64,000 nt of DNA, taken from Treponemataceae bacterium. GTDB taxonomy: Bacteria > Spirochaetota > Spirochaetia > Treponematales > Rectinemataceae. The notes under the pieces are model-generated. The model did not search any database. It saw nothing but the letters and a program-made list of their open reading frames with translations, and had not been told where the DNA came from. A program made the translations under genes and the position numbers. This document shows positions 21,771-44,222 of this stretch, piece after piece. The number at the start of each line of letters is the position of its first letter. The first letter of the stretch is position 1. The stretch spans positions 544,001 to 608,000 of the forward strand of contig CAXXVZ010000002.1 in assembly GCA_963678065.2 (NCBI GenBank), given 5' to 3'.

Positions 21771-23432
21771 ATGACGATCCTCACACTAGTACTGGAATTG
21801 GTCGGAGGTCTGGCAATGTTCATGCACGGCATGGAATTGACCAGTGACGGCATCCAGCGCGCGGCGGGGAACAGGCTGCAGCGCACCGTCAATTTCATGA
21901 CGAAGAACAGGGTCATGGCTGTACTCACGGGAACGCTCGTCACCATCCTGATCCAGTCCTCATCGGCGACGAGCGTCATGGTCGTATCCTTCGTGAACGC
22001 CGGTCTACTCTCTCTCGTTCAGGCCATCGGCGTCATCATGGGCACCAACATAGGGACGACCCTCACGGGCTGGATCATCGCGGCGGTCGGCGTCGGAAAG
22101 TTCAGCGTCGCCGCCCTCGCCGTGCCCATTTTCGGACTCGGCTTCTTCATGTCGCTCATGAAAAAGCGATCTGACTCCTTCAGAAGTTACGGTACGGTGT
22201 TCATGGGATTCTCCATGATTTTCCTCGGCCTCGGTTTCATTTCGGAATCCATCCCAAAGCCCTCAGGCGACGTCCTGTACTTCCTCCAGAATTTCTCCAA
22301 CCTCGGATTCCTCTCCATAATCATCGCCGTCCTGGTCGGCACGGTCTTCACCATCCTCGTCAACGCCTCGAGCGCGACGCTCGCCATCGTCATAGCCCTC
22401 GCCACCGAAGGCGTGATCGATTTCCGCATGGCCGCGGCCCTCACGCTCGGCGCCAACATCGGCACGACCTTCGACGCCTTCCTGGCCTCATTCGCCACCA
22501 ATGTCGACGGCAAGAGAGCCGGTTACGCCCACATCCTCTTCAACGTCTTCGGGACCCTCTGGGTCATCGCGGTCTTCGACCCATTCCTCAAATTCGTGGA
22601 CTTCGTGACGCCAGGAGAGATCACTCCCGCCACTCTCGGCGTCCACATCGCCATGCTGCACACCCTGTTCAACACCTGCAACACGATCATCCTTCTGCCC
22701 TTCGTGAATCAGTACGCCGCATTTATGCGTAAAATTTTCCCGGACAAGCCCGGCACGAAAGGACAAGTCCTCGTCTACCACCCCCAGCCGATCCTGCCCA
22801 CGCCGGAACTCTCCATCATCCACGCACGGAAGGAAATATCCGACATGTCTATCCTTGCGCGCGAGATGTTCCTTCGCGCCCGCGACGGACTCGTCACCTT
22901 GCCCGAAAACATGGAGACCGAACTCGAGTGGTTCGGCAAGCGCGAGAGCTACGCCGACTCGATGCAGGAAGAGCTCACTCGCTACCTTCTCACCATCAAC
23001 CGCCAAGACGTCAACGCCCGAACCGAAGAAAACCTCGGCCAGCTCATGCACATGGTAGACGACCTCGAAAACATCACCGATTCCTGCCTGAGCCTCGCCT
23101 ACCTCCTCGAACGCCAGGGCAAAAAACAGCTCATCTTCGGGAAGAAGGAGTCCACGGGACTCTTGCCCTACACAGCCCTCGTCGACGAATTTCTCGCCTT
23201 CATTGTCGGGAACATCGGCGGCCAGCTCTCGCCGGAGCAGCTCGACCTCGCGGGGGAATACGAGAATCGGGTCGACGCGATGCGCAAGGAGCTTAAAAAG
23301 AAGGCACAGAAGCGTCTTAGGGAGGGCAGCGAAGTCAAAGCCGAATTGCTCTTCCTCGACATCATCCGGCAGATCGAGAAGATCGGCGATCACGCCTTCG
23401 GAGTGGCCGCAGCCCTCAAAGCTCTTACATGA
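21771..23432 (+). CDS. Na/Pi cotransporter family protein with PhoU-like C-terminus
   Basis: IQSSSATSV...GTNIGTT and a second repeat NASSAT...GANIGTT; helical C-terminal domain with DLENITD/IEKIGDH. Confidence 0.93.
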   Translation: MTILTLVLELVGGLAMFMHGMELTSDGIQRAAGNRLQRTVNFMTKNRVMAVLTGTLVTILIQSSSATSVMVVSFVNAGLLSLVQAIGVIMGTNIGTTLTGWIIAAVGVGKFSVAALAVPIFGLGFFMSLMKKRSDSFRSYGTVFMGFSMIFLGLGFISESIPKPSGDVLYFLQNFSNLGFLSIIIAVLVGTVFTILVNASSATLAIVIALATEGVIDFRMAAALTLGANIGTTFDAFLASFATNVDGKRAGYAHILFNVFGTLWVIAVFDPFLKFVDFVTPGEITPATLGVHIAMLHTLFNTCNTIILLPFVNQYAAFMRKIFPDKPGTKGQVLVYHPQPILPTPELSIIHARKEISDMSILAREMFLRARDGLVTLPENMETELEWFGKRESYADSMQEELTRYLLTINRQDVNARTEENLGQLMHMVDDLENITDSCLSLAYLLERQGKKQLIFGKKESTGLLPYTALVDEFLAFIVGNIGGQLSPEQLDLAGEYENRVDAMRKELKKKAQKRLREGSEVKAELLFLDIIRQIEKIGDHAFGVAAALKALT

Positions 23433-25641: not shown

Positions 25642-26631
25642 TCAGAGCAGCTTCCGGCTGCTCACCCTCACGTTGATGATGACAGCGAGGGCGATGACGA
25701 GGCCGACGAACGCGTCCTGGATGTACGCGTCGGTTCCGAGGAGGACCAGGCCCGTCCGCACCTCGGCCATGATGAAAGTCCCTATGAACGAGCCGATGAT
25801 GCTTCCGATGCCGCCCGACATCGAGGTGCCGCCGATCACCGCCGCCGCTATCGCCTCGAGCTCGAGACTGGTTCCCTGCGTTGGGGTGACCGTTTTCAGG
25901 TATCCGAGCGAAACAAGGGATGCGAGCCCGGCCGCCCCGGCGGTAAGAAGGAAGCAGATCCTCTTTATGTGGACGGTCTTGATGCCGGCGAGCTCCGCGG
26001 CGTCGCGGTTGTCTCCCGACGCATACACCCGGACTCCGAACGTCGTGCGGTGCAACACGACGTACATCGCGATCCCCCACGCGAGCACCCAGAAAACAGG
26101 GACAGGAATCAGTCCAAACAACTCCGAACGGCCCATGATGCCGTAGAAGGGGTTGTCGTCGAATGTGGATATCGGCTGCCCCTGCGAGAGGACCATCGCG
26201 ATGCCCCGAAAGACCATCATCGTCGAGAGTGTGGCGATGAAGGAATTGATTTTTGTGGTTGTGACGAGGAGTCCGTTCAGATAGCCGAGGATGAGAGCGC
26301 TCGCGAGACCAAGCACGGCCGAAAGCCAGATGTTCAGACCGAGATTCTTCGTCAGAAGTCCGGTGACAACTCCGGTGACGGCGAATATGGCGCCGACGGA
26401 CAGATCGAATTCTCCGGCGATGATGAGAATCGTCATCGACATCGCGATGATCCCGAGCCCCGCCGTCTGGCGGAGGAGGTTGAAGAAATTGTACGCCGTC
26501 AGGAAGACCGGCGACGTGAGCGAAAAAAATATCCCGATGAGTATGGCCGCGGCCACTACGCCGAAGTCCCGGAATCCGACAAAGCGCCTGATGACGGAGC
26601 CCTTGCCTGAAGATGATGTGCCGTTTGCCAT
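25642..26631 (-). CDS. Monosaccharide ABC transporter permease (RbsC-like, CUT2)
   Basis: GEFDLSVG, SFIATL, FGVRVYASGDN..AAELAGI and ELEAIAAAVIGGTSM.GG motifs. Confidence 0.93.
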   Translation of the reverse strand: MANGTSSSGKGSVIRRFVGFRDFGVVAAAILIGIFFSLTSPVFLTAYNFFNLLRQTAGLGIIAMSMTILIIAGEFDLSVGAIFAVTGVVTGLLTKNLGLNIWLSAVLGLASALILGYLNGLLVTTTKINSFIATLSTMMVFRGIAMVLSQGQPISTFDDNPFYGIMGRSELFGLIPVPVFWVLAWGIAMYVVLHRTTFGVRVYASGDNRDAAELAGIKTVHIKRICFLLTAGAAGLASLVSLGYLKTVTPTQGTSLELEAIAAAVIGGTSMSGGIGSIIGSFIGTFIMAEVRTGLVLLGTDAYIQDAFVGLVIALAVIINVRVSSRKLL

Positions 26632-26655: not shown

Positions 26656-28146
26656 TCAGGTGCTCGAAGCGAGGACGAGATCGTCCTTGGTCGCCTTGTC
26701 GCCGGGAAGAAGGATTTTCATCCGTCCCTTGCTCATCACCAGGATGTCGTCCGAGAGCCGGAGAAGCTCTTCGTGTTCCGACGAAGCGATGATGAACGAG
26801 TACCCCTGGTCCGCGAGGTCTTGGATCAATGCCAGAATTTCCTGTTTCGCGCCGACGTCGACGCCGCGGGTCGGCTCGCTCATCACTATGAGCCGCGGAC
26901 GCAGGGCGAGCCAGCGGGCGATCAGCACTTTCTGCTGATTGCCGCCCGACAGGGAACTCACGGGCGCGTCGGGGCCGCTCATCTTGATGTGGACATCCTG
27001 CGACGCGCGGGCCGTCGCCTGGCGAAGCTTCTTTTCGTTCACGAACGCGCCGCCGGAAAAACGGTCGATGCCCGGCATGCACAGATTCAGTTTGACGTCC
27101 AGGTGGTGAAAAAGCCCGAGCTTCTTCCGGTCTTCCGGAACCATGCCGATACCATGGCCGATGGCCTCGGCGGGAGAGGAAATGCGACATTCCTTTCCGT
27201 CGATCAGGATCGTTCCGGAATCAGCCGGGGGGGAGCCGAACAGCGCGCGCGCGATCGCCGACCTGCCCGACCCGGCGAGTCCCGCTATTCCGAGGATGCC
27301 GCCCCGCGCGACAGAAAAACTGACATCGTCGAACTCCCCCCCGAGCCCGAGATTCCTGACCTGCAACAGGGTTTCCCCGCGCGGTTTGACCGTCCTGCGC
27401 ACCACCGTCTCCAGCCGCCTTCCCGCTATCATGGACGAGATCGCGCGGGTGTCGAACTCTCCCTTTTCCAAGGAGCCGATGAACGAGCCGTCGCGAAATA
27501 CGACAATCGAATCGCAGAGCGAAACCAGCTCTTCGAGCATGTGGCTGACGAACAGGAAAGTGACTCCGCGATCGCGAAGCCGCCGTATGATGGTGAACAG
27601 ACGCTCGACTTCCGGCGGTGTGAGCGCGGTAGTCGGTTCGTCGAGAATGATGAAGGATGCGTTCCGCGACAGGACGCGCACGAGAAGTGCGAGCTGCGTC
27701 TCGGCCGTCGAGCAGTCCCTGACGAGCCGCGTAGGATCGATGTCCTCTCCGAGCAGATCGGCGTACAGTCGCCGGCATTCCTCGTTCATGCGCTTCCAGT
27801 CGGGGGAGAGCCCCTTGCCCGGCATCGCCGGTCCCAGGAAGACATTGGCCGCGACCGACAGGTGGGGGCAGACGGGGATTTCCTGGTGGAACACGCTGAT
27901 CCCGCGCTTCTCCGCCTCTTCCGGACCCTTGGGGCGGTAGGCTTCTCCCCGGAGCTCAAGCGTGCCGGAATCCGGCTTGTGGACTCCGCAGAGGATTTTG
28001 ATGAGAGTGGATTTGCCGGCTCCGTTTTCTCCCGCAAGCCCGACAATGCTCCCCTTCTCCACGGAAAAGGAGACGGAATCGAGGGCCTTCGTGGATCCGA
28101 AGCTCTTGCTGATCGAGTGAATGGCAAGTATCGGGCTGCTGCTCAT
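26656..28146 (-). CDS. Monosaccharide ABC transporter ATP-binding protein (RbsA/MglA-like, two NBDs)
   Basis: GENGAGKST; ILDEPTTAL; second NBD with VPEDRK, LSGGNQQK and EPTRGVDVGAK. Confidence 0.95.
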   Translation of the reverse strand: MSSSPILAIHSISKSFGSTKALDSVSFSVEKGSIVGLAGENGAGKSTLIKILCGVHKPDSGTLELRGEAYRPKGPEEAEKRGISVFHQEIPVCPHLSVAANVFLGPAMPGKGLSPDWKRMNEECRRLYADLLGEDIDPTRLVRDCSTAETQLALLVRVLSRNASFIILDEPTTALTPPEVERLFTIIRRLRDRGVTFLFVSHMLEELVSLCDSIVVFRDGSFIGSLEKGEFDTRAISSMIAGRRLETVVRRTVKPRGETLLQVRNLGLGGEFDDVSFSVARGGILGIAGLAGSGRSAIARALFGSPPADSGTILIDGKECRISSPAEAIGHGIGMVPEDRKKLGLFHHLDVKLNLCMPGIDRFSGGAFVNEKKLRQATARASQDVHIKMSGPDAPVSSLSGGNQQKVLIARWLALRPRLIVMSEPTRGVDVGAKQEILALIQDLADQGYSFIIASSEHEELLRLSDDILVMSKGRMKILLPGDKATKDDLVLASST

Positions 28147-28297: not shown

Positions 28298-29251
28298 TCA
28301 GCGGTATCCCTTCGCCGCCAGATCCATGACCGCCTTCACGTTCTCGGCCGTGACGGGAGCGATGCCGGTGTTGATATCGCAGGGCGTCAGGCTGTACTTC
28401 TTGAGCAGATACAGTTCGACGACACTCTGGTATCCCTGCAGATAGGGTTGCTGATCGATCGTGAACGACATGGTGCCCTTGGTGATGCCCGCGAGCACAT
28501 CGGCGACGAGGTCGAAGCCTCCACCGACGACCTTGCCCTTGAGCTTGTCGCGCTCGATGATCTGGGCGATCGCCGAACCGGTCACGTCCTCGACCCCGAA
28601 CATTCCCTTGATCGCGGGATTGGCCTGGTAGGCGCTACCGATGAGGGACACCGCCTTGACCATGTCGGTTCCGGTAGCCACGACCCGGTACTTGAACTTT
28701 CCACCCTGGGCGTCCAGAACGTCTTTAACGCCCTTGATGCGGGCCTCGAGGTTTTCCGCGCCGGCGGTGTGGATGCACAGAAGAACGTCGCCGCCTGCGG
28801 GCAGGAGCTTGACGACCTGCCGTCCCATGGACTGTCCGGCCTCATAGTTGCCCTGGCCCACGTAGGCGAGGCGGCCGGAGGCCGGAGCGTCGGCGTTCAG
28901 CGCGATCACCGGTATGCCCTTCGACATCGCTTCCTTTACGACATCGTTGAACGCGGATGTGTCGGGCATCGTGGTCGCGATGCCATCGACTTTCTGGGCG
29001 ATGGCGGACTTGATGTAATCGATCTGTTTCTGGATGTCGAATCCGGAAGGCCCGGTGTAGACGACATCGCAGCCCAGGTCCTGGCCCGCTTCCTCGGCGC
29101 CTTTCCGTACGGGCACGAAGAAGGGAACCGCTGTGGCGTGTGTGATCACCACGAATTTATACTTTTTCGCCTGGGCCGCTCCGCTCATGACCGGCAGGGT
29201 CGCCAGAACCGCCGCGAGCAACAGTACCGATCCGAGACCTTTTCTGACCAT
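28298..29251 (-). CDS. Monosaccharide ABC substrate-binding protein (periplasmic binding protein type 1)
   Basis: Signal peptide; PFFVPVRKGAEEAG, YVGQGNYEAG, GGFD and TIDQQPYLQGY; GGAGGA RBS. Confidence 0.92.
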   Translation of the reverse strand: MVRKGLGSVLLLAAVLATLPVMSGAAQAKKYKFVVITHATAVPFFVPVRKGAEEAGQDLGCDVVYTGPSGFDIQKQIDYIKSAIAQKVDGIATTMPDTSAFNDVVKEAMSKGIPVIALNADAPASGRLAYVGQGNYEAGQSMGRQVVKLLPAGGDVLLCIHTAGAENLEARIKGVKDVLDAQGGKFKYRVVATGTDMVKAVSLIGSAYQANPAIKGMFGVEDVTGSAIAQIIERDKLKGKVVGGGFDLVADVLAGITKGTMSFTIDQQPYLQGYQSVVELYLLKKYSLTPCDINTGIAPVTAENVKAVMDLAAKGYR

Positions 29252-29341: not shown

Positions 29342-29358
29342 TGCACGTTTCATGCCAG
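29342..29358 (-). promoter_or_regulatory. Sigma54 -24/-12 promoter of the ABC operon
   Basis: Minus strand CTGGCATGAAACGTGCA (GG-N10-GC), 90 nt upstream of the SBP ATG and next to a GAFTGA activator gene. Confidence 0.8.
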
Positions 29359-29515
29359 AGAACATACAATGCCCGCATTTCCGGAAATATCCTGAAGATT
29401 CGCGCGAGATTACATCGTTTTCAAGTATCCGCGTTCTTTTGCGCACCAGAACACGTTATCTGGGCGGAGGCGGCGGTCTGGAAACGATTCCGGCTTGCGG
29501 GAACCGGGAAGCGGT

Positions 29516-29563
29516 TGTACAGTAAATGTACAGCCTGAACAGCGAGTGTACAAAATTTGAACA
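29516..29563. promoter_or_regulatory. Putative enhancer (UAS) array for the sigma54 activator
   Basis: TG(T/A)ACA at 29516, 29527, 29536, 29547 and 29558 (spacings 11, 9, 11, 11). Confidence 0.6.
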
Positions 29564-30894
29564 CGACCATCCTGATCGTCGACGACCGGATCATGCTCTG
29601 CGAAAGTCTCCAGGCGAGCCTGGAAGAACGGGGTTACCGCGTCCTCATCGCGACCTCGGGCGGCATGGCGGTCGACATGTTCCACAACGAGAACATCCAG
29701 GCTGTCCTGCTCGACATCCGGCTCGGCGAGGAGGACGGAATGACTATCCTCCCGCGCCTCGCGACGATCGATCCCCTGGTTCCGGTGATCGTGATAACCG
29801 GCTACGGGACGGTGGAAAGCGCCGTGACCGCGATCAAGGAAGGGGCATTCGATTATCTCGAGAAGCCCGTCAAGGTCGAAAAACTGCTCATCGTCCTGGA
29901 GAACGCGATCCGGATGTCCGCCCTGGCGCGGGAAAACCGCGAACTGAAACGGAAAGGCTGCCTCTTCGCCTTCACGACCCGTTCAAGGGACATGAAATCT
30001 ATGCTCGAACGCGTGACCCGACTCGCGATCTCCGATTTGCCCATACTCATCCGGGGGGAGAGCGGCACCGGAAAGGAGCTGGTGGCGGAATACATCCACC
30101 AGACTTCGCCGCGGGCCCAGGGAACGCTCGAAAAGATCAACTGCGCCGCCTTCCCGGAAAGCCTGCTCGACAATGAACTGTTCGGCCACGAGAAGGGAGC
30201 CTTCACCGGCGCGGATTCGGTTTTCCGCGGAGTGTTCGAGCGGGCCCATGGTGGTACGCTCTTCCTGGACGAAGTCGGCGACATGCCCCCCGCTATCCAG
30301 GCCAAGATCCTGCGGGCGATACAGAACAAGGAAATCAGGCGGATCGGCGGATCGACCACGATCAAGGTCGACATCCGCTTCCTGGCCGCCACGAACCAGG
30401 ACCTCGAGACCCTGGTCGCGGAGGGCGCTTTCCGCAGCGATCTTCTGTACAGGCTCAATGCCGCGACGGTGCGGGTGCCCCTGCTTTGCGAGCGACCGGA
30501 AGACATTGTGCCGCTCGCCGAAAAAATGCTCGCCGACCTGGCGTCCGCGGACCGCCAGTGGCGACTATCCCCGGAAGCCGCGGTCGCCCTGGAGCGCTAT
30601 TCCTGGCCGGGCAATGTGCGCGAACTGAAAAGTGCGGTCCACTATGCCTGCACTGTCGCCCTCGATCCCATGATCCGGGAGCGCGACCTGCCCGAGAGCC
30701 TCGCCCTTCCCGTATCAGAGGACAGGAGACTCGGAGTGAGGGAAGGCGCCGAACGCTCCCTCATCCTGCGCACTTTGTCGGAGACCGGACACAACAAGAA
30801 GAAATCTGCGCAGATCCTTCAGATGAGCAGGGTGACGCTGTACAATAAGATGAAGAAGTATGGAATCGGAAGCGACGCCCCTCGTCCGGCTTGA
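29557..30894 (+). CDS. Sigma54-dependent response regulator (REC-AAA+-Fis HTH, NtrC/AtoC family)
   Basis: ILIVDD, LLDIRL, ITGYG, KP receiver motifs; GESGTGKE; ELFGHEKGAFTGA; LFLDEVG; WPGNVREL; C-terminal HTH. TTG start. Confidence 0.95.
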   Translation: MNTTILIVDDRIMLCESLQASLEERGYRVLIATSGGMAVDMFHNENIQAVLLDIRLGEEDGMTILPRLATIDPLVPVIVITGYGTVESAVTAIKEGAFDYLEKPVKVEKLLIVLENAIRMSALARENRELKRKGCLFAFTTRSRDMKSMLERVTRLAISDLPILIRGESGTGKELVAEYIHQTSPRAQGTLEKINCAAFPESLLDNELFGHEKGAFTGADSVFRGVFERAHGGTLFLDEVGDMPPAIQAKILRAIQNKEIRRIGGSTTIKVDIRFLAATNQDLETLVAEGAFRSDLLYRLNAATVRVPLLCERPEDIVPLAEKMLADLASADRQWRLSPEAAVALERYSWPGNVRELKSAVHYACTVALDPMIRERDLPESLALPVSEDRRLGVREGAERSLILRTLSETGHNKKKSAQILQMSRVTLYNKMKKYGIGSDAPRPA

Positions 30895-32692
30895 GGGTAT
30901 ACAGGTCCGATACGGCAGTCTCACCGTGCTGGGGAACCTGCATTTTTCCCTTGTCCCCGGAGAAATCCACGCGATAGTCGGCGAACACGGCGCGGGCAAG
31001 TCCACGCTGGCCCGGGTGATCGCCGGAGCGATCAGACCGTCGGCCGGCCGGGTTTCCTGGGAGGGGCGGCAGAGGGCTTTCTTCAACCGCGACATAGCGC
31101 GGAACCTCGGCATCGAGTTCGTCGCGCAGGAGACGAGCATCTTCCGTCACCAGTCGGTGGCCTTCAATCTTCTCGTCAACAGGAAAAGTCTTTTCCCCGG
31201 CCCGCTCTTCAGCCCGCACCGGAATGTCGAAGAGGCGGAGCGCTACCTCGCGCGGATGGGCGTATCGATACCGGCGCGCGCCCTCATGGAGGGGCTCGCC
31301 CTCCCGGACAGGGTACTCATCGACATCCTGAGCTGCCTGTACGCGGGGCCGCGGCTCCTTATCCTGGACGAGGCCCTCGAAAAGCTGTCCGCCGAGGACC
31401 TCGCCAGGGTCCGCCCGCTCCTGCGGGGCATAGCCCGCTCAGGCGGCTGTGTCCTTGTGATCACCCACCGGATCGACGACATGTACAATCTCGCCGACAG
31501 CCTCACCATTCTCCGCGCGGGCAAAATCCTGATGACGGACAGGGTGCGCAACATCGACAAGGTGAGTGTCATCAAGCTCGCCTACACACAGATCATGAGC
31601 CGTCCGGAAGCCGAGGACATGAACGAGGAATTCCACCACTTCCTCAAGTACAACGAGGCGGTTCTCGAACATCTTCCGGTCAGCCTGGTGATCGTCGACC
31701 GGAACGGGAAGATCAAAATGTACAACCGCCGGGCGCAGGAATTTTTCGACCTGCCGCAGGTGCCGGCTGGAGAGCGGGGGATCGAACTCCTTTTCCGGCC
31801 GGAGGAAGAGGACGCTATCGCCGCGGTTTCCGCGGCGATAGAGAGGCGGGTTCTGGATTGCGCGTACGGCATGAGGCTCCGGAAAGGAAAGGGCGACCGG
31901 ACGGTCGATTTTACGTACAATCCCATTTTCGACGGGGATCACTTCATAGGGAGCATGCTGATCTTCAATGACATCACCGAGCAGGAAGAGCTGCGCGCGG
32001 GGATGATCCTGTCCGAAAAACTGGCCGCGGTCGGGCTCTTGTCGGCGGGAGTCGCCCACGAGATCAACAATCCGCTCGAGACGATCTGCAACTCCGTCGA
32101 CTTCCTCAAAATGAAGGTTACGGAGGAGAAACAGGCCAGGGCGCTGTCGCGGATCGAGGGGGAGGTAGCGGCGATCGGACACATCGTCGGGAACCTCATG
32201 GCGTTCTCCGGCCGGAACAGGAGCCCGGAGGAGCGCTTCGATCTGGGGGAATTGCTGTCGGAGACGGTTTCCCTCCTGCGGTACAACGCGCGGTTCTCCG
32301 GAACAAAGATCGTGTACCGCGGGCCGGATTCGCCCCTCGGGATCACAGCGGTGCGGACGGAAATCAGACAGGTTTTCCTCAACCTCATCAAGAACGGCCT
32401 TGAGGCCATGCCGGATGGCGGCAATCTCGAAGTGCTGCTCCGCCGGGAACATGAGGGCGACCAGAGCTGGGCGGTCGGCATCGTGGAGGACCGCGGCACG
32501 GGGCTCGGGACCGGGACCGGCACGACGATTTTCCTGCCCTTCTTCTCGACGAAAAGCGGAGCCGAGGGGCACATGGGACTTGGACTTTCGATTTCATACG
32601 GAATCATCAACAAACTTGGCGGATCCATCGCCGCGGAGAACATCGAACCGCGGGGATGTCGATTCACCGTCCGCATACCGGCCTGTGGCTGA
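30860..32692 (+). CDS. Hybrid protein: ABC ATPase domain - PAS - HisKA - HATPase_c histidine kinase
   Basis: One 610-aa ORF with GEHGAGKST, FVAQE, LLILDEA and VITHR, then PAS (VLEHLPVSLVIVDRNGKIKMYNRRAQEFF), H-box AGVAHEINNPL, N-box QVFLNLIKNG, EDRGTG, FLPFFSTK and GLGLSIS; no TM segment. Confidence 0.9.
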   Translation: MESEATPLVRLEGIQVRYGSLTVLGNLHFSLVPGEIHAIVGEHGAGKSTLARVIAGAIRPSAGRVSWEGRQRAFFNRDIARNLGIEFVAQETSIFRHQSVAFNLLVNRKSLFPGPLFSPHRNVEEAERYLARMGVSIPARALMEGLALPDRVLIDILSCLYAGPRLLILDEALEKLSAEDLARVRPLLRGIARSGGCVLVITHRIDDMYNLADSLTILRAGKILMTDRVRNIDKVSVIKLAYTQIMSRPEAEDMNEEFHHFLKYNEAVLEHLPVSLVIVDRNGKIKMYNRRAQEFFDLPQVPAGERGIELLFRPEEEDAIAAVSAAIERRVLDCAYGMRLRKGKGDRTVDFTYNPIFDGDHFIGSMLIFNDITEQEELRAGMILSEKLAAVGLLSAGVAHEINNPLETICNSVDFLKMKVTEEKQARALSRIEGEVAAIGHIVGNLMAFSGRNRSPEERFDLGELLSETVSLLRYNARFSGTKIVYRGPDSPLGITAVRTEIRQVFLNLIKNGLEAMPDGGNLEVLLRREHEGDQSWAVGIVEDRGTGLGTGTGTTIFLPFFSTKSGAEGHMGLGLSISYGIINKLGGSIAAENIEPRGCRFTVRIPACG

Positions 32693-32710
32693 AGCGGGAG
32701 AGGAGAGACA

Positions 32711-33910
32711 ATGGACCTTTGCGTCGGACAGGAAATCGACGAGATCGTCGAAAAGGGTATGGCTGACCGGGTATTCCCCGGCATCGTCTGCGGCGTATGG
32801 AAGGACGGGAGGGAAGTCTACAGCCTCGTCAAAGGTCACGCAGTGCCGCCCGACGACCCGGAACTCGCCGCGCGTCCGATGGCGCGCGACACCGTTTTCG
32901 ACTTGGCCTCCCTCACGAAGCCTTTGTCCACGGCGATACTCGTCATGAAGGCTGTCGAGGCGGGGGCCCTCAGGTTGGACGACACTGTTTCCCGCTTTTT
33001 GCGGGGCCCCGCCCCGGGATACGCTTCGCCGGCCGCCTCCGCCATCCCCGTCCGTGAGCTGTTGACTCACACGGGCGGGCTTCCCGCCATTCCGGCCCTC
33101 GAAAAATACTTCCCCGATCCTTTCCACATCGACCGGAACGAGGCTGTTGCGAGGCTTCTCGCCATCGCGCCCGAGCGCCCTTTCGGAGAGTCGGTCGTCT
33201 ACTCCTGCACGGGATTCATGCTCCTCGGTCTCATCCTTGAGAGCGTCTCCGGGCTGAGTCTGGGTGAACTTTTCCGTCGCGAACTCGCGCGGCCGCTGGG
33301 GCTCGCGGGCGCGGGATTCGCGCCGGAGCTCGGGCAGGACCCGCGGGATGCCGGGCCGGACACAGCCTCGCGTGGATCGGGTCCGGCCCTCTTCCCCGGC
33401 GCGGCGCCGACCGAGTTCTGCGCCTGGAGGAAGCGGCGGATCTGCGCTCAGGTCCACGACGAGAGCTCCTGGTGCCTCGGCGGACAGGCGGGGAATGCGG
33501 GGTTTTTCGCCACGCTCGACGATGTGGCGGCGATCGCCTCGATCTATCTGCAGGAGGGCCTGTCGTGGGGAGGGCGCGACGGGACACAGGGCGTACGGAT
33601 TCTCGAGCGGGACACTGTCCGTCTCATGACCACTCCTCAGACAGAGGCCGCCGGAGAGCGAAGATCCTTGGGCCTGCGCCTCCACGATCAGGATACGCTG
33701 GACGGGCCGGCCTGGCCCGACTCGAGCTTCGGTCACACGGGTTTCACCGGCACGAGCGTGTTCATGGATCCCGGAAGCCGCCTCATGGCTGTGTGCCTCA
33801 CGAACCGGGTCTACTATGGCCGCGAACAGACCGTGCTGAAAATGCCGGTGTTCAGGCGGGCCTTCCACACGGCGGTGTACAGGCGCTTTGCCGGAACACC
33901 CGCTCTCTAG
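32711..33910 (+). CDS. Serine hydrolase, beta-lactamase/AmpC-like family
   Basis: FDLASLTK SxxK, LLTHTGG, YSC, VHDE and FGHTGFTGT; no signal peptide. Confidence 0.9.
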   Translation: MDLCVGQEIDEIVEKGMADRVFPGIVCGVWKDGREVYSLVKGHAVPPDDPELAARPMARDTVFDLASLTKPLSTAILVMKAVEAGALRLDDTVSRFLRGPAPGYASPAASAIPVRELLTHTGGLPAIPALEKYFPDPFHIDRNEAVARLLAIAPERPFGESVVYSCTGFMLLGLILESVSGLSLGELFRRELARPLGLAGAGFAPELGQDPRDAGPDTASRGSGPALFPGAAPTEFCAWRKRRICAQVHDESSWCLGGQAGNAGFFATLDDVAAIASIYLQEGLSWGGRDGTQGVRILERDTVRLMTTPQTEAAGERRSLGLRLHDQDTLDGPAWPDSSFGHTGFTGTSVFMDPGSRLMAVCLTNRVYYGREQTVLKMPVFRRAFHTAVYRRFAGTPAL

Positions 33911-33916
33911 TGCGCG

Positions 33917-36900
33917 TCACAGCCCCGCCTGGTCTCCGGAGGCGGGGACCAACCTGACTGTCTTGATCTCGAAGGCGCGGAAATCGAGGGATATGGCGCC
34001 TCCACTGATGGACAGCACGCGCCCTCCTTGTTCCAGCATATCGGTCTCGACGGCGCTCTCCAGAGCGAAATCCGTCCGGAGAGCGCAGCGGGTCGCCGTA
34101 CCGTAGCACTCGTAGAGCCTCAGCATGATGTCCCCCGAACCGTCTTCGGGAGGTTTTGCCGTTTCGAGCACGACGCCGGGCTTGTCCAGGACAAAGATCG
34201 AGCGCGATCCGTCGCCGGGGTCCGGGACCGGGCGCGGAAGAACGGGAGAGTTGAGATTGTAGGCTTCCCGGACAAGGCCGCTCTCTCCGAGAGGCGAGTT
34301 CCAGAAATACAGAGCGTAGGTGAACTCCTGGATGCCGCGGTCGGCCTGCATGTCGGGCACCCACGCGGCTTTCAGGAGCGTGAGGGCGATGATTGAGTCG
34401 CGCACGCTCACCCCGTACTTGCAGTCGTTGAGCAGGGCGAAACCCCGCCCCGGTTCGGCGATGGCCGTCCACTTGTGCTGACTGACCTCGTAACGGTCGG
34501 CGTCGTGCCGCCGGGAAGAGTGGGCGGGGCGCCTTACGTGGCCGAACTGGATTTCGCTCAGGGCCTCGTCCGCGCGGAAGGCCACCGGGAAGGCGACTTT
34601 GAGGAGTCTGTGGTTTTCCCTCCAGTCGATGCGGGTGCGGAAATCCACCCGAACCGAACCGCGGCGCAGAACAATCTCCTGAGTGAGTCCGGAGTCCGCG
34701 ATGCTCCGCTCGATCCTGACGCGGGCGACGAGCGGCCCCTTGTCCAGAACGATCATCCGGGCTGGGCTGTCCAGGACAACCGGCACGCTCTCGTACATGC
34801 TGTCGATGTCCCAGGCGTCGTAATTCGTCGTGACGTCTTTGTAGAGCCTGAACTCGTTGCAGTTTCCGGCGGCGAGTTCCCGGCCTTGCGTGAGGTCGAA
34901 TATGCTCGAGATCGAGCCGAAGCGGTCCAGGACGATGCGCGTGAGGCCGTTGGACATGACGATGCCGGTGCCCGAGTCGGCAACCTCGACATCGCAGACG
35001 CCGGCGCAGAGGCCGGCGTTGGGGACTTCGACATCGCGTGCGCCCGCGCCCCGGGGCGCGCCGCCGACTGCCCGCGGCTCCGTGTCGGATACCGTTGCGC
35101 CCTCCCCGGCCGGCGCTTCACCGCTCCCGGATAAAAGTTCGCCGCCGCCGGGCACCATTCTCTCGCGATCAGGCAGGATCCTGATCGTCGACCAGCCGCA
35201 AGGCGGCAGGTCGACGAGAGCGAGGCTTCCGGCCTCCGTTTCCTGGACCGGCAGAACTTTCCTGCCGGTTTCTTCCCATGCTTTCCTGCCGGCATCTTCC
35301 CCCGGTTCTCCATCGGCGACGCGGAAGGCGCTCGCGCCCTTCGGGATCGGGACGAGCTCGGCGCGCTCCCACGAGAGCGAATTGTAGACGCGAAGGAATT
35401 CCGGGGAGCGGGAATCGCCGCCGTGCGGCTCATCCTCGGCGCACAGGACAGCCTCGAGAGAGGCGAGCGCCAGATCGCGCACAGAGCGGGCGTCGCGGGC
35501 CACCCCAGCGAGTTCGGCTTCGGCCTCCTCGTGCACGCGGCGGATCGAGGCTCCGGTGATCACATCGTGGAAATGGTTCATGAGAAGGCTTTGCCAGATG
35601 CGTTCCATGAGTTCGCGCGGATAGGCCATGACGGCTCCCGAGGCGGACCCGATGCCTGTCGCGACGGAAGCCCAGAACTCGGCCTCGCGCAGCGCGAACT
35701 CGGCCAGCCTGTTCGCCCGCTTGGTGCGGGCCTGCGAGGTGTAGGTGCCGCGGTGCTCGGAAAAATAAAGTTCCCCGACGTACACGTCCTTGGGGAGTCC
35801 ACGCCTCTCGATGTCCCGGAAGAAATCGGCGGGATGGCTCATCCGCGTCCGGGGTATCCCCTCGAGGTCGCCGAGTCTGCGCGTGAACTCGAGCATCGTC
35901 CGCGTCGGACCACCGCCGCCGTCGCCGTATCCGAAGGGAAAGAGGTAGGTCGAGATCCCGTCCTTCTGTATCCGGTCGGTGTCCCAGCGCCGCGAGAGAG
36001 TCGCCGGATCGATCTGCGAGTTGCACTTGCGGAAGACGTGGGACAATACCCGCGTGCCGTCCAGCCCCTGCCACATGAATATCGAGTAGGGGAAGGGCTC
36101 GCCGTCGCTGTAGGTGTCGGCGATTTTCTTCGTCGCAAACCAGGAGAGGCCGCAACCTTTCATGATCTGCGGCAGGGCGGCCGAAAAACCGAAGGTGTCG
36201 GGCAGCCACAGGACGCTCGTGTCGGAGCCGAGTTCCTCCCGGAAAAAGCGCTTCGCGAACAGAATCTGCCGTATCAGGGCCTCGCCCGAAGGCAGGTTGG
36301 TGTCAGGCTCGAGCCACATTCCGCCCTCGGCCATCGCGCGTCCCTCGAGGAGCCGCCTCCGGGTCCGCTCCCAGATCTCCGGATAGTGCTCCTTCAGCAT
36401 GAGAAAGAGCGGAACCTGGCAGAAGAGATAGCGGTATTCGGGGTACTCGTCCATGAGGGCGAGCTGAGTCGACATGGTGCGCGCCGACTTGCGCACTGTC
36501 TCCTGCCGCGGCCACTTCCAGGCGAGGTCGAGGTGGGACTGGCCGAAAATGAACATCGTCGGGGCCGTCGATCCGTTCACGCAGGCGAGCAGGGGGGCGA
36601 GCCTCGCGCGGGCGGCGACGAACGAGGCCTCGCGCGCTTCCGCAGATGTCTCGAAATCGACGATCCTGGTGAAGTCGCACAGGCCCTCGTCGATCTGCAA
36701 GACCCGCAGGGAGGACTCGCTCAGGCTGTCGCGGGTCTGTAAGAGTGTCTGTGCGTCGATCCAGAGGGCGAAAGCCTCATCGTTCCAGATGCCGAAACTG
36801 CTCTCGCCGACGGTCTGCTGGGCCGGCCCCGGCTCGGGCATGGGAATCCTGCCCGGGGGCACCGGCCCGACACTCTCCTCGGTGAGCCCGTGCCCCGCGT

Positions 36901-37297
36901 AGAACTCGGCGAGGATTCCGAACTTCCTGCCAGGCAGGGAATCAGGACCCGCACAGAGCGTGATTTCGCGGTGCTCGCGGTCCCGCGCGCCCGCGGCGAC
37001 GCCGTTCACGAAGACGAGCCCCTCCGCGCCCGGATTCGCCGCGAGAACGATCCTGCGACCACGGGCCTCCTCGGGAAGGGTTATGGCGGCGCGAAACCAG
37101 GCGTACTCCCACTTCGCGCCCCACTTCGTCCCGGCGGGCATCGGAGAAAAATCTCCGCGCACGGCCTCTTCGGGCCCGAGGCGCTCCGCTGTCACGAAAC
37201 CTTCGAAATCGACGACGCCGAGCGGCGCATAGAAATGCCGGGGCAATTCAGTCATCCAGTTCCTGACGCGGCCGGTCCACTCGCGTGTCAATGCCAT
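33917..37297 (-). CDS. Alpha-mannosidase, GH38
   Basis: GQSHLDLAWKW, GGMWLEPDTNLPSGEALIRQ, WLPDTFG, GYGDGGGGP, HRGTYTSQ and NHFHDVITG. Confidence 0.95.
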   Translation of the reverse strand: MALTREWTGRVRNWMTELPRHFYAPLGVVDFEGFVTAERLGPEEAVRGDFSPMPAGTKWGAKWEYAWFRAAITLPEEARGRRIVLAANPGAEGLVFVNGVAAGARDREHREITLCAGPDSLPGRKFGILAEFYAGHGLTEESVGPVPPGRIPMPEPGPAQQTVGESSFGIWNDEAFALWIDAQTLLQTRDSLSESSLRVLQIDEGLCDFTRIVDFETSAEAREASFVAARARLAPLLACVNGSTAPTMFIFGQSHLDLAWKWPRQETVRKSARTMSTQLALMDEYPEYRYLFCQVPLFLMLKEHYPEIWERTRRRLLEGRAMAEGGMWLEPDTNLPSGEALIRQILFAKRFFREELGSDTSVLWLPDTFGFSAALPQIMKGCGLSWFATKKIADTYSDGEPFPYSIFMWQGLDGTRVLSHVFRKCNSQIDPATLSRRWDTDRIQKDGISTYLFPFGYGDGGGGPTRTMLEFTRRLGDLEGIPRTRMSHPADFFRDIERRGLPKDVYVGELYFSEHRGTYTSQARTKRANRLAEFALREAEFWASVATGIGSASGAVMAYPRELMERIWQSLLMNHFHDVITGASIRRVHEEAEAELAGVARDARSVRDLALASLEAVLCAEDEPHGGDSRSPEFLRVYNSLSWERAELVPIPKGASAFRVADGEPGEDAGRKAWEETGRKVLPVQETEAGSLALVDLPPCGWSTIRILPDRERMVPGGGELLSGSGEAPAGEGATVSDTEPRAVGGAPRGAGARDVEVPNAGLCAGVCDVEVADSGTGIVMSNGLTRIVLDRFGSISSIFDLTQGRELAAGNCNEFRLYKDVTTNYDAWDIDSMYESVPVVLDSPARMIVLDKGPLVARVRIERSIADSGLTQEIVLRRGSVRVDFRTRIDWRENHRLLKVAFPVAFRADEALSEIQFGHVRRPAHSSRRHDADRYEVSQHKWTAIAEPGRGFALLNDCKYGVSVRDSIIALTLLKAAWVPDMQADRGIQEFTYALYFWNSPLGESGLVREAYNLNSPVLPRPVPDPGDGSRSIFVLDKPGVVLETAKPPEDGSGDIMLRLYECYGTATRCALRTDFALESAVETDMLEQGGRVLSISGGAISLDFRAFEIKTVRLVPASGDQAGL

Positions 37298-37300
37298 CGG

Positions 37301-38422
37301 CTATATCCTTCCTGTCGAGTCCCGGCCCCCGCCGGAGGCTCTCCGATCCGCGAGCGCGCGGGCGAGCCTTTGCGCTCCCTGAACGACATCCTCGCGCGAG
37401 TTCTTCTTTCCCAGCTCGAGCACCTTGATGGGCGCCGCCTCGATCAGGTCGAGGTAGCCGTCGAGTCCCTCGCGGGAGTAGGGCGCGAAATGATCGTCGA
37501 CCCCGTCCACGTCGTGGATGTGGACACCCTCCAGGCGCGCAAGGAGCGCGCGGGCTTCCTCCCTGTCGTCGAAAAAACCGAGATGCCGCATCATGGCGCC
37601 GTGCCCCGTGTCGAACCACATCCCGAGAGGAGCCCCGGCCAGGGCACCGAGAATCCGGCGCATCTGCGCGAAGTCGGGAATCTGCCAGCACATGGGACGG
37701 TTTTCGATGCCCAGCCTCACGTCCAGGTTCTCGCGTACGATGAAACCGGCGACTTCCTCGAGGCTTTCGATGATCCGACCGAGTTCCGGCTCCGCGCACA
37801 GGTCGCGGTATTCGATAAACTCGCGGAAGACGGCGTCGAATTCCGCGTCGCCACGCCTCAGGCCCCGGCTGTACAGGGCCTTCAGTTCGGTGTCGTAGGC
37901 CTCGACGGGACGACTTTCGGAATAACGACCCGCGCCGGAATCCGGCCATAGGCCCAGCCCCGGCCTCGAACGCAGACCAGAACCAGGGTCTTTGCCCGTC
38001 GTACCTGTACCGGCCGCGGAACGGGGCGGCAGCACGCCGGGATGCACGACGACGACCCGGGCGCCGAGCTCGGATGCCATCCTCACCGTCCCGACAGTGA
38101 GTTCGACCGCGCGTTTTCTCAGCTCCGGGTCGGCGTAGCCGAGGAGGCGGGAATCCGTGTCGAAACGAGAATCCGGGACCTTGGGGAAAACGTTGTGGAG
38201 GCTCGGGACTTCGATCTCACCCCGCTCCACCATCGGCCTGATCGTCGCGAGGGCCTCTTCGGAGATCTGGTAGTTCAACTCGACTTTCCGGAATCCCAGA
38301 TCGACGATCTCCTCAATTATCGTTCGTCCGACGGGGGAATTGCGCCAGTTCCACGAAGTGGAGAAGGAAAACCGGTCCAGCCCGGCGGCAAGCTCCTCAG
38401 AACCGGCGCGGGACGAGCTCAC
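37301..38422 (-). CDS. Sugar phosphate isomerase/epimerase (xylose isomerase-like TIM barrel)
   Basis: SLHN, VVVHPG, LGIENR, WFDTGH, VHIHD and DHFAP metal motifs; GTG start overlaps the upstream stop. Confidence 0.8.
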   Translation of the reverse strand: MSSSRAGSEELAAGLDRFSFSTSWNWRNSPVGRTIIEEIVDLGFRKVELNYQISEEALATIRPMVERGEIEVPSLHNVFPKVPDSRFDTDSRLLGYADPELRKRAVELTVGTVRMASELGARVVVVHPGVLPPRSAAGTGTTGKDPGSGLRSRPGLGLWPDSGAGRYSESRPVEAYDTELKALYSRGLRRGDAEFDAVFREFIEYRDLCAEPELGRIIESLEEVAGFIVRENLDVRLGIENRPMCWQIPDFAQMRRILGALAGAPLGMWFDTGHGAMMRHLGFFDDREEARALLARLEGVHIHDVDGVDDHFAPYSREGLDGYLDLIEAAPIKVLELGKKNSREDVVQGAQRLARALADRRASGGGRDSTGRI

Positions 38423-40308
38423 TGCACTCTCCCGCGCGGGATGCGCCTGATCGACACGACGCGGTCGAAGGGAGTGAAGGCGGTAAAGTACACCGAGAAG
38501 TGATCGCGGCTCCGGGATTCGCTTCCATACGTCCCGCCCGTATCCCTGTGCGCGGCGAAAGCGGGCCCGATCGCCAGCGCGTCCCCGCCGAGCGAGGCCC
38601 GGACCTCGCCTTCGCGGACGAGGATCGATTCTCCCGCGCGGCCTTCGAGCCGGAATGAATCCGACTCGACGAGGCATCCCGACGCCAAGCCGAACTCGAG
38701 GCGGAAGGGCACGCCCTCCCATCCCTCGACGGAGAGGCGGATGTCGACCCCATCGCCCTCGACGCGCCCGGACACGGCGACGGCAAAGTCGAGATCGGGA
38801 CCGGCGAGGCGGGGCCTCGACCTGTTGTCCATCGCCCACCAGTCGCTCGTTCCCGGCGCCTCGTCGAAAGGAAGATAGTACCAGCCGGCGGCCTTGTACC
38901 GCAGGATGTAGGCGCCGTCCTCCTTTTCAATGGAATCGGCCCTGAACTCGCGCTTGTCGAACCAGGCGACGCCGAGCTTGAGATACACGGAGAAGGCGCC
39001 CGACTGGAAATACAGAAAGCGGCCGGAACCGCGCAAAAGGGAGTAGCTGAAATCTTTCCGCCTCACCCGCACGATGCCGGAATCCCGGTAAAAGCGTTCG
39101 TAGTCGGCGGAGAATGTCGAGCCTCCGTCCGGACCGCACAGGGGGATGGCAGCGAAGGCCTGCCAGACGCCGTCTGTCCCGCCCGGACTGGCGTCGTCTG
39201 GCCCGCGTGGACTGTCGCCGGCGCTGCTCTCGCTCTCGGCCCGCGCATAGTCGATCCCGCCGAACTCGAGCATGATCCAGTCGAGGAAATCCGGAGCGAC
39301 GCGTCCGGCCGCGATGATGCCGTCCATGATCCTGCGGGCGACCGCGAGGAATCCGGGCAGTTTGAGTTTTCCCCCCAGGTACAGGTAATTGAAGTAGTAG
39401 TTGTCGAGCCAGGTTTTGACGCCGCGGTCCTGCCGGGTCGAGTTGTTCGTGAACACGCTGCCGTCGGGCTCGATGTAGGTGAGCATCATTTCGAGGTTGC
39501 GTCTCGCGAATCCGAGATAGACCGGATCGGCCCTCTCGGCAGCGAGGATGATCATCTGGTCGTTGTTGACCATGTTGTAGTTGCCGGCCGAGCGCTCCGC
39601 GTATTCGCCCTCCCGGGTGCCGTCTATGCCCTCGCGCAGATAGTCCTCCGCCCGCGAGCGGTGTTTTTCGTTCCCGCCGATCGTGTAGCACGACGAGAGC
39701 GCGGCCGCGATGGCCCAGCGGTGATTCGGCGTGTGAAAGCCGCCCGCTGCCATTCCGTCTCCCGCCTTCAGGATGAGGGCGCGAAGTCTGGCCGCAATTT
39801 CCCCGAGGCGCAGAACAAGGCCCGCGCCGCCATCGCGGCCGGCGCACCCGGCAGCCTCGTTCTTCGCAGTTCCCGCGACATCGACGCCAGCCGGGCCCGC
39901 GCCGGCCTTGTTTTTCTCATCGGCCAGAAGCCTCTCGATCAGGCGGAGCGTGACGACGATCCGGTTGACGATGAAGGCGGTGTCGGGCGCCGAGCGGAAA
40001 TTGCAAGGCCTGTAATCGAAAGTCCCGTCCGGGTTCTGGACACGCTCGGCGTAGCCGAGAGCTTGCGAGAAGGCCTCCGGTATGGCCGGATTCAGGTAAT
40101 GGCGCGAGTCGCGGTTGAGGAAGACCGACATGGCCGCGGCGGCGAGGTGCAGCGTCGGCTTCGGGTCGGCGTATCCCCAGGTCATTCCGCCCCAATCGGC
40201 CACAACCGCCCCGAAGTCGGACGAGCGTGGATCCTCGATCCGGGCCGAAAGAAAGAGATCGGCCCTCGTTTCGGTGTCGCGGAGCATCCGCATCCAGTGT
40301 TCCCTCAC
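38419..40308 (-). CDS. Conserved hypothetical protein (possible alpha/alpha-toroid carbohydrate-active enzyme)
   Basis: Long ORF with SAPDTAF, GGFHTPNHRW, GEYAERSAGNYN and NNSTRQD blocks; GGAGGG RBS before GTG 40308; inside the GH38 operon. Confidence 0.7.
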   Translation of the reverse strand: MREHWMRMLRDTETRADLFLSARIEDPRSSDFGAVVADWGGMTWGYADPKPTLHLAAAAMSVFLNRDSRHYLNPAIPEAFSQALGYAERVQNPDGTFDYRPCNFRSAPDTAFIVNRIVVTLRLIERLLADEKNKAGAGPAGVDVAGTAKNEAAGCAGRDGGAGLVLRLGEIAARLRALILKAGDGMAAGGFHTPNHRWAIAAALSSCYTIGGNEKHRSRAEDYLREGIDGTREGEYAERSAGNYNMVNNDQMIILAAERADPVYLGFARRNLEMMLTYIEPDGSVFTNNSTRQDRGVKTWLDNYYFNYLYLGGKLKLPGFLAVARRIMDGIIAAGRVAPDFLDWIMLEFGGIDYARAESESSAGDSPRGPDDASPGGTDGVWQAFAAIPLCGPDGGSTFSADYERFYRDSGIVRVRRKDFSYSLLRGSGRFLYFQSGAFSVYLKLGVAWFDKREFRADSIEKEDGAYILRYKAAGWYYLPFDEAPGTSDWWAMDNRSRPRLAGPDLDFAVAVSGRVEGDGVDIRLSVEGWEGVPFRLEFGLASGCLVESDSFRLEGRAGESILVREGEVRASLGGDALAIGPAFAAHRDTGGTYGSESRSRDHFSVYFTAFTPFDRVVSIRRIPRGRVQ

Positions 40309-40360
40309 GCATCCCTCCACTACATTCGTCTTTTCCGATCCGCGCCATACCGGGCCGGCC

Positions 40361-41920: not shown

Positions 41921-42067
41921 AAAACCTCCTTCTTTCCGCATGTCGAATCTCTATATCGAGGGAGAGGCTCACCGCGCCTTCCTCCCCGTTTCCCGCATCG
42001 AAGGCACGACGGCGGACTACCGCGCCGCGCCTGCACCGCACATCCCCATTCCCGTCGCAAACGCCTC

Positions 42068-43027: not shown

Positions 43028-43039
43028 CGCGCCTGCCTC

Positions 43040-44044: not shown

Positions 44045-44222
44045 TGAAACCGTCCCGATCGTGGATTCATCGCCCCTAAAATCGTTTTCAGAAGGCGACA
44101 AATGTACAATCAGGTCGTTTTACGGATTGCGCAATGGAAGGTTTTTCCGAAAATATCAGTATTTCCGGGAAATGCCGGTTTTAACCGATTTCTGACGGAC
44201 TGGCGGAACAGCGTGCGAGACC

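Follow-up and report, generated by a model that had tools for sequence, protein, structure and literature searches.

The subject of this study is a gene for a soluble histidine kinase in a 64,000-nucleotide stretch of DNA (the window, in whose numbering all positions are given) from a Treponemataceae bacterium (assembly GCA_963678065.2, contig CAXXVZ010000002.1, positions 544,001 to 608,000 of the forward strand). The gene is a single frame of 610 residues without a stop, in which a nucleotide-binding domain (NBD) of the kind found in ATP-binding cassette (ABC) transporters is followed by a PAS domain and a kinase core. It stands next to the genes of a sigma54 response regulator and of a sugar importer of the CUT2 class, and the features of the locus are the following.

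25642-26631, minus strand: RbsC-type permease (BPD_transp_2; Pfam and curated families)
25981-26052, minus strand: coupling segment of the permease, residues 194-217, which we take to be its EAA segment; predicted contact with the kinase NBD (model interface)
26656-28146, minus strand: ordinary RbsA-type tandem ATPase, with intact Walker A in the N-half and intact LSGGNQ in the C-half
28298-29251, minus strand: CUT2 periplasmic sugar-binding protein (Peripla_BP_4), 317 amino acids from the ATG at 29251
29342-29358, minus strand: match to a sigma54 -24/-12 promoter for the importer operon
29516-29532, no strand: candidate enhancer dyad 1 (TGT-N11-ACA)
29547-29563, no strand: candidate enhancer dyad 2 (TGT-N11-ACA), across the TTG start codon of the regulator
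29557-30894, plus strand: cognate NtrC/AtoC-type sigma54 response regulator (REC D53, GAFTGA at 214, Fis helix-turn-helix), overlapping the kinase start by 35 nucleotides
30860-32692, plus strand: soluble histidine kinase NBD-PAS-HisKA-HATPase_c (open frame, Pfam, homologues, model, bridging contigs)
30878-31591, plus strand: ABC NBD of RbsA N-half type, residues 7-244, with Walker A, Q-loop, Walker B and H-loop but no signature
31118-31216, plus strand: predicted permease-docking groove, residues 87-119, after the Q-loop (model interface, conservation)
31553-31678, plus strand: helix-linker-helix at the NBD-to-PAS junction, residues 232-273, conserved specifically in the kinase family; probable signal relay
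31655-31987, plus strand: PAS domain, residues 266-376 (Pfam)
32036-32680, plus strand: kinase core, HisKA (H400) and HATPase_c (N, G1, F and G2 boxes; Pfam, motifs)

The Kinase and Its Domains

An original prediction, made from the letters of the DNA, had described an uninterrupted frame with NBD, PAS, HisKA and HATPase domains, and this is borne out by Pfam matches to ABC_tran (residues 25-173, E = 1e-19), PAS (266-376), HisKA (393-450) and HATPase_c (499-607). Every motif that it listed is also present: GEHGAGKST at 41-49, Q90, LALPD in the place of the signature at 146-150, LLILDE at 166-171, EALEKL at 171-176 and H203 in the NBD, and H400, the N-box (504-514), DRG-x-G (544-548), the F-box (557-562) and GLGL (573-576) in the core, which thereby has the complete hallmarks of a class I (HisKA) kinase, an H-box His together with N, G1, F and G2 boxes. 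The maximal hydropathy over 19 residues is 1.54, where soluble ATPases have a median of 1.32 and permeases one of 2.63, so that the kinase has no transmembrane segment, as had been proposed.

The closest curated families are the N-halves of CUT2 ATPases (LsrA, YtfR, AraG, RbsA) for the NBD and AtoS for the kinase part, all with scores far under their cut-offs. An AlphaFold model of the monomer (pLDDT 79, pTM 0.47) places the parts in the order NBD, flexible linker (244-254), helix, PAS, long helix and kinase core; a Foldseek search with this model gave matches to a kinase or to an NBD separately and none to both. The two helices of residues 232-273, with the motifs DKxxLIKLAYT and FxxFLKYNEAxL, have conservation values of 0.67 and 0.59, while the values are 0.47 for the NBD and 0.36 for PAS.

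A Widespread Family

Single ungapped contigs from three studies span the whole kinase gene including the NBD/PAS junction, covering 30181-33200 with 0 differences from the window, 30423-33200 with 29 and 30598-33200 with 33; the first may come from the same strain, the other two from diverged strains. An assembly chimera, by which the original prediction would have fallen, or a recent fusion without function is therefore rejected as virtually impossible. Nothing was found in its favor, contigs of three studies cover the gene, within the class 67 of 301 genomes have homologues, as do seven of nine genomes of the KSB3 phylum, and the NBDs of the family form one branch.

A profile search of representatives at 50% identity gives at least 150 matches, mostly of about 600 amino acids and full-length. 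Of the 120 homologues listed by a separate search (the window protein included; one truncated), 119 have ABC_tran, HisKA and HATPase_c, so that the architecture for which a search had been suggested is widespread. In genome surveys with a profile of 118 sequences, 14 of 401 genomes sampled from the phylum of the bacterium have the fusion. In its class, Spirochaetia, the genomes that have the fusion carry up to four copies each, and in KSB3 up to six, while the bacterium itself has one. With six candidates scored per genome, there was no family match in 201 genomes from the phylum of a Chloroflexia metagenome-assembled genome or in 201 from the class of a Rhizobium, nor was there any in the PLSDB plasmids, and a relaxed search of 61 further genomes gave no match that spans both NBD and kinase domains.

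Four members (L006, L108, L115 and L185; such handles denote loci) are frameshifted or truncated within the kinase core. One protein of 851 amino acids, P0208, was considered as a new architecture and rejected as an internal duplication. In the ESM Atlas, two Actinomycetota clusters of 166 and 64 members and about 830-850 amino acids combine ABC_tran and HisKA, GAF appearing in their name or among their Pfam domains. At a score of 0.83 they are no more than a lead, and this NBD-GAF-kinase family may be a parallel invention.

Automatic annotations of homologues already join the two domain names. No description of an NBD-fused kinase was found in the literature searched, a search that lay outside supplementary files and most subscription papers, and the portions available of PMC11109136, PMC1183210 and PMC4312070 contain none. 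The family is thus real, widespread and apparently unstudied.

Ancestry of the NBD

When 328 NBDs of the kinase family are compared with the 88 N-halves and 88 C-halves of tandem ATPases encoded near them, the kinase NBDs come nearest to the RbsA-type N-halves and form a single branch (FastTree support 100). The window NBD is 27% identical to the N-half of the window ATPase and 21% to its C-half, and the family means are 0.276 and 0.207. It is by the N-half that the kinase resembles tandem CUT2 ATPases of the RbsA/MglA type, and the C-half is absent from it, so that it does not have the two fused NBDs of such an ATPase.

The signature and D-loop of the kinase had been called degenerate. The letters are as described, but they do not reflect decay of this protein: RbsA-type N-halves lack the signature too (SGG in 0/88, D-loop Asp in 7/88), from which follows that its absence in the kinases (SGG in 0/328, D-loop Asp in 5/328) is inherited. 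In the C-halves, both elements are present in 88/88, and one degenerate site is described as normal in RbsA-type ATPases in the available part of PMC11466899. Compared with a self-sufficient ABC ATPase, the window NBD has the Walker A Lys, the Q-loop, the Walker B Asp-Glu and the H-loop, and lacks LSGGQ and the D-loop Asp. Since neither copy can supply these two elements, a homodimer of such NBDs has no complete site for hydrolysis.

All 88 N-halves of the ATPases retain the five cis residues that correspond to K47, Q90, D170, E171 and H203, while only 235 of the 328 kinases do, the one in the window included. In the kinases, K47 of Walker A (322/328) and D170 of Walker B (323/328) are nearly always kept, but the catalytic E171 remains in 303 with at least 18 changes on the tree, H203 in 254 with at least 27 and Q90 in 294 with at least 12. 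As judged from these sequences, the pattern points to nucleotide binding rather than hydrolysis. Besides relaxed catalytic residues and a new conserved C-terminal helix, the kinase NBDs differ from the RbsA/MglA ATPases by GEH instead of GEN in Walker A and by E[AI]LEKL instead of EPT[SA][SA]L, with P172 in 1/328 kinases and 87/88 ATPases.

Linkage to CUT2 Importers

The neighborhoods of the kinases were compared in 104 anchors, of which 73 have at least 8 kb on each side. The anchors are all 18 matches from the same phylum other than the window's own, 80 regions comprising 81 of the 113 matches from the same class and chosen for flank length, six of 80 loci from a search for related loci (which gave mostly ordinary kinases), and the window; three duplicates were dropped. 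Of the 73 loci with full flanks, all have the sigma54 regulator directly upstream of the kinase (73/73), 68 have a CUT2 permease within 9 kb and 65 a tandem ATPase; a 69th locus has a CUT2 importer of the BMP type. A binding protein is counted in 69/73, which is an upper bound because the match in L107 is a LacI regulator. A CUT1 permease is found in six loci, all of which also have a CUT2 permease. In KSB3, where 23 of the 27 matches are anchors, the regulator is present in 23/23 and the permease in 21/23. Random spots in the genome of the bacterium have a CUT2 permease within 9 kb in 11% of cases and a CUT1 permease in 27%, and one of 26 other kinase-like open reading frames there has a CUT2 permease nearby. 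Homologues without linkage to CUT2 transporters would have spoken against the original prediction; the linkage stands at 68/73 against a background of 11%. The loci are kin and not independent, but the linkage spans 19 clusters of permeases at 45% identity, and the binding proteins of 65 modules fall into 22 clusters.

The importer is divergent from the kinase-regulator cassette in 66 of the 104 anchors, the window among them. Evolutionary distances of kinase and regulator correlate with r = 0.66-0.74 in distant pairs and do not track the importer, which means that the kinase does not follow the type of substrate. Sequence comparison indicates that the cassette has been re-paired with different importers within the CUT2 class. 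The binding protein of the window matches generic sugar binders best, under cut-off.

Several loci are worth recording for their own sake. L061 (4968-11812) and L242 (5114-13142) each have two kinase-regulator cassettes close by, each with its own CUT2 importer. In L167 (9053-15994), the permease is 69% identical to that of the window and the kinase just 41%, as for a different cassette lineage or rate. Two KSB3 loci have no sigma54 site at two mismatches or fewer: L249 (8950-19420), with the cassette 2.5 kb from a Liv-type importer whose permease has the identical Pfam family, and L250 (8980-12181), an orphan cassette between tuf and hydrogenase-like genes. Loci that seemed to have a permease and a binding protein without an ATPase (L219, L001 and others) were an artefact of overlapping reading frames, in which hidden Markov models found the ATPase.

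Output: a Probable Sigma54 Circuit

The promoter and the enhancer before the importer make up an output side that the original prediction had missed. When the window was scanned with a sigma54 consensus at a threshold of two mismatches, the site at 29358-29342 on the minus strand was the only one in 64 kb. Among the 82 anchors where an importer gene starts next to the cassette, such a site precedes the importer in 64, with 0/82 in the antisense direction and 0.43 in shuffled sequences. Upstream of the sigma54 sites, TGT-N11-ACA is the top spaced dyad, present in 43 of 87 regions where 5.85 are expected, and it is often paired at a distance of about 31-33 bp. Related strains diverge in the spacer 29363-29474, between the promoter match and the dyads, and rpoN is present in the genome. 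The locus thus has all parts of a sigma54 two-component system, as judged by this consensus: an adjacent REC-AAA+(GAFTGA)-HTH activator, a -24/-12 site, upstream dyads and rpoN.

From the sites and dyads before the importer follows that the cassette, by this pattern of DNA motifs, most likely induces its own importer. The position of dyad 2 over the TTG start suggests that the regulator acts as a repressor of its own operon and at the same time activates the importer. Scans for sigma70 promoters and terminators gave results near chance level, and short contigs from one RNA run, which cover parts of all five genes, are uninformative on transcription.

Predicted Docking on the Permease

That the NBD docks on the RbsC-like permease, as originally proposed, is supported by the CUT2 linkage, by a conserved groove and by a model of the complex, and it stands as a prediction. 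The proposed modeling with the permease 25642-26631, here two permeases and one NBD, gave a score of 0.62, while the best of three controls reached 0.09. Of 157 solved complexes 116 attain this mark, as do 2 of 215 mismatched pairs, and these counts are only roughly valid here. Contacts agree between runs in at least 74%, and the partner pLDDT is at least 79. In the model, residues 194-217 of the permease lie against residues 87-119 of the NBD, the usual motor socket. A phmmer search of the PDB found no solved RbsC homologue.

At seven positions of the groove, hydrophobic residues are retained in 76-97% of the family. Four of the five full-flank loci without a nearby permease rank 1, 2, 4 and 7 of 113 for groove decay, and they belong to two separate lineages. 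One clade with decayed grooves comprises L179, L180 and L183, with L182 as sister; its sigma54 sites precede genes for an alcohol dehydrogenase or glycyl-radical enzyme and for DJ-1/PfpI proteins, with no importer, and the clade L179/L180/L183 may have switched its input.

Proposed Mechanism

We propose that the NBD, a copy of the RbsA N-half, takes the place of the motor on the permease's coupling helix, and that the loaded binding protein switches the kinase, which acts through the sigma54 activator on the importer operon. To this we assign a probability of roughly 0.55. The fusion, the motif pattern, the CUT2 linkage and the matches to promoter and enhancer are read from sequence, and the contact between NBD and permease is predicted. 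The lack of any transmembrane or extracytoplasmic sensor in the kinase, as judged from hydropathy and domains, also counts in its favor.

Consider how such a system would work. The kinase would occupy one or both motor sockets of the permease as a decoy motor, by which parts of the importer become a sugar receptor. The kinase dimer could set its two NBDs on both coupling helices of the permease homodimer. A sugar-loaded binding protein would shift the permease together with the NBD pair, which would bind nucleotide, hydrolyze little or none of it and serve as a conformational switch. The helices of residues 232-273 would relay the state to PAS and further to DHp, and the kinase would phosphorylate the adjacent sigma54 activator, which would fire the importer promoter from the TGT-N11-ACA dyads. 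A stronger version, tentative and with less than even odds, is that the importer has been rebuilt as a receptor from binding protein, permease dimer and kinase dimer, with two hydrolysis-poor NBDs in both sockets. The cassette would then be a plug-and-play device, re-paired with at least 19 CUT2 subfamilies, through which any binding protein could control a two-component system that has no transmembrane sensor.

A number of observations weigh against docking as the input. In mirror-tree tests, where pairwise distances are correlated and distant pairs are considered, kinase NBD and permease give r = 0.10, no more than the 0.15 of the kinase core and much less than the 0.41-0.44 of ATPase and permease; they show no partner-specific co-evolution. 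Groove residues are no nearer to those of the cognate ATPase than of non-cognate ones (p = 0.10). The predicted docking mode is generic, so that the score of the model shows an intact socket-binding surface and not the choice of partner, and it may mirror a general likeness of NBD and coupling helix to solved importers. About 42 CUT2 permeases stand against a single such kinase in the genome, which leaves specificity unexplained; the genome's very large load of sugar importers also comprises 40 tandem ATPases and about 150 CUT1 permease reading frames. A tandem ATPase stands beside the permease in 88 of the 104 anchors, so that the kinase has a co-encoded, covalently doubled motor as its competitor. 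No anchor was found that has a binding protein and a permease without an ATPase; additional pairs of binding protein and permease (L161, L162, L188, L213) could be using a common ATPase and do not settle the matter. Finally, the orphan L250 has an intact groove (rank 97), and L106, L181 and L182 have decayed grooves in spite of a nearby CUT2 importer.

The alternative that survives best, unlikely as it is, places sensing in the cytoplasm: the imported sugar or a metabolite would be recognized there, probably by PAS, with the NBD as a tether or nucleotide-stabilized scaffold. PAS is the most variable part of the kinase, with a mean distance of 2.33 that is near the 2.59 of the binding proteins; the PAS of CbrA has been suggested to bind histidine (PMC13022988, in the part available); lineages with decayed grooves retain sigma54 targets; and the missing co-evolution of NBD and permease is as expected. 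However, PAS and binding-protein distances correlate with just r = 0.16 in distant pairs, the helices from NBD to PAS are among the most conserved parts, and a cytoplasmic sensor would be expected to work with CUT1 importers as well, whose frequency as neighbors in the genome is 2.5 times higher, but which occur alone in 0/73 loci.

Less probable is a sensor of flux, where the kinase NBD displaces the N-half of the ATPase, pairs with the C-half and borrows its LSGGNQ, so that a hydrolyzing site reports transport cycles. The cis motifs that the C-half lacks are indeed held by the kinase NBD and the trans motifs by the C-half (88/88), the five cis residues persist in the majority of the family counted above, and the ATPase is nearly always co-encoded. 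But the repeated losses of E171 and H203 make pairing with the RbsA-like ATPase, one of the options originally offered, less likely; kinase NBD and C-half show no co-evolution (r = -0.02 in distant pairs), and the native N-half, being covalently tethered, would outcompete the kinase. The other original option, a free sensor of cytoplasmic ATP/ADP or energy without connection to the permease, is improbable. It accords with the retention of K47 and D170 (about 98%) and with some orphan loci (L250, and L179, L180 and L183 by glycyl-radical enzyme genes), but it is weakened by the linkage to the CUT2 class and by the up to six paralogues in a genome, most of them next to a CUT2 importer that has a sigma54 promoter of its own, an arrangement that would be senseless for a single global signal; moreover, the docking groove is kept, and the complex model passes.

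If the decoy mechanism holds, it is a new coupling of transport and signaling, in which an ATPase domain in a kinase reads a permease at its motor-binding site. Two matters become testable, the reading of an importer's conformational state without ATP hydrolysis and the coupling of RbsC-type permeases to their NBDs. The mechanism predicts a sigma54 regulon of sugar uptake, with a TGT-N11-ACA enhancer, among anaerobic spirochaetes and in KSB3, and it suggests a modular biosensor chassis, where the input is changed by swapping binding protein and permease.

Other Genes in the Window

A serine hydrolase of beta-lactamase fold (32711-33910, plus strand) starts 18 nucleotides past the kinase; it falls under all beta-lactamase cut-offs, is most like PBP4B and is no recurrent neighbor in other loci. 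A separate carbohydrate locus (33917-44101, minus strand) has genes for a GH38 alpha-mannosidase, a TIM-barrel isomerase-like protein and an unknown protein of 633 amino acids behind a CUT1-type importer.

Comparison with Known Systems

In the E. coli maltose system, the state of an importer NBD controls transcription of the importer, as working MalK sequesters the activator MalT directly; unlike the system here, it has no kinase and no decoy NBD. AtoS/AtoC and NtrB/NtrC share with it the PAS-HisKA-HATPase kinase, the REC-AAA+-HTH activator and the -24/-12 promoter with upstream dyads. The window proteins do not belong to AtoS/AtoC as equivalogs (kinase 191 against an NCBIfam cut-off of 646, regulator 400 against 714), and the input here is an ABC NBD.

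CbrB of the CbrA/CbrB pair is likewise a sigma54 activator. The kinases with SLC5 and STAC domains (CbrA/CbrB, CrbS, RpuS) have a transporter-derived module N-terminal to PAS-DHp-CA, as here, according to the available part of PMC13022988. CbrA fuses the membrane transporter itself, a secondary carrier with 13 transmembrane segments, whereas here the fused part is only the soluble ATPase half, and the permease has its own gene; by Pfam and hydropathy, the SLC5 membrane domain and the STAC domain are absent from the kinase.

In the Pst system of E. coli (PstSCAB-PhoU-PhoR/PhoB), an importer signals by its NBD side to a kinase that is without a periplasmic sensor, as here, and that governs the regulon (PMC6978683, in part). 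There, the working motor PstB signals through the adaptor PhoU to a membrane kinase, while here the NBD lacks a signature, is separate from the working motor and forms part of a soluble kinase with sigma54 output. No PhoU-like adaptor is found in the kinase module, and the only PhoU-domain match among the scanned window proteins is a Na/Pi cotransporter (21771-23432). The BceAB-BceS/BceR systems of Firmicutes share the logic of an ABC transporter that is co-sensor of a kinase and whose genes are induced (PMC6978683 and PMC11466899, both in part). They have an intramembrane kinase and a transporter that handles antimicrobial peptides and lacks a binding protein, whereas here the importer is of the CUT2 class with a binding protein, the predicted contact is at the motor socket on the cytoplasmic side, the kinase has no transmembrane segment and the permease is BPD_transp_2 rather than BceB-type. 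The module thus functions like Pst-PhoU-PhoR and Bce and is built like CbrA, and it is a member of none of the three.

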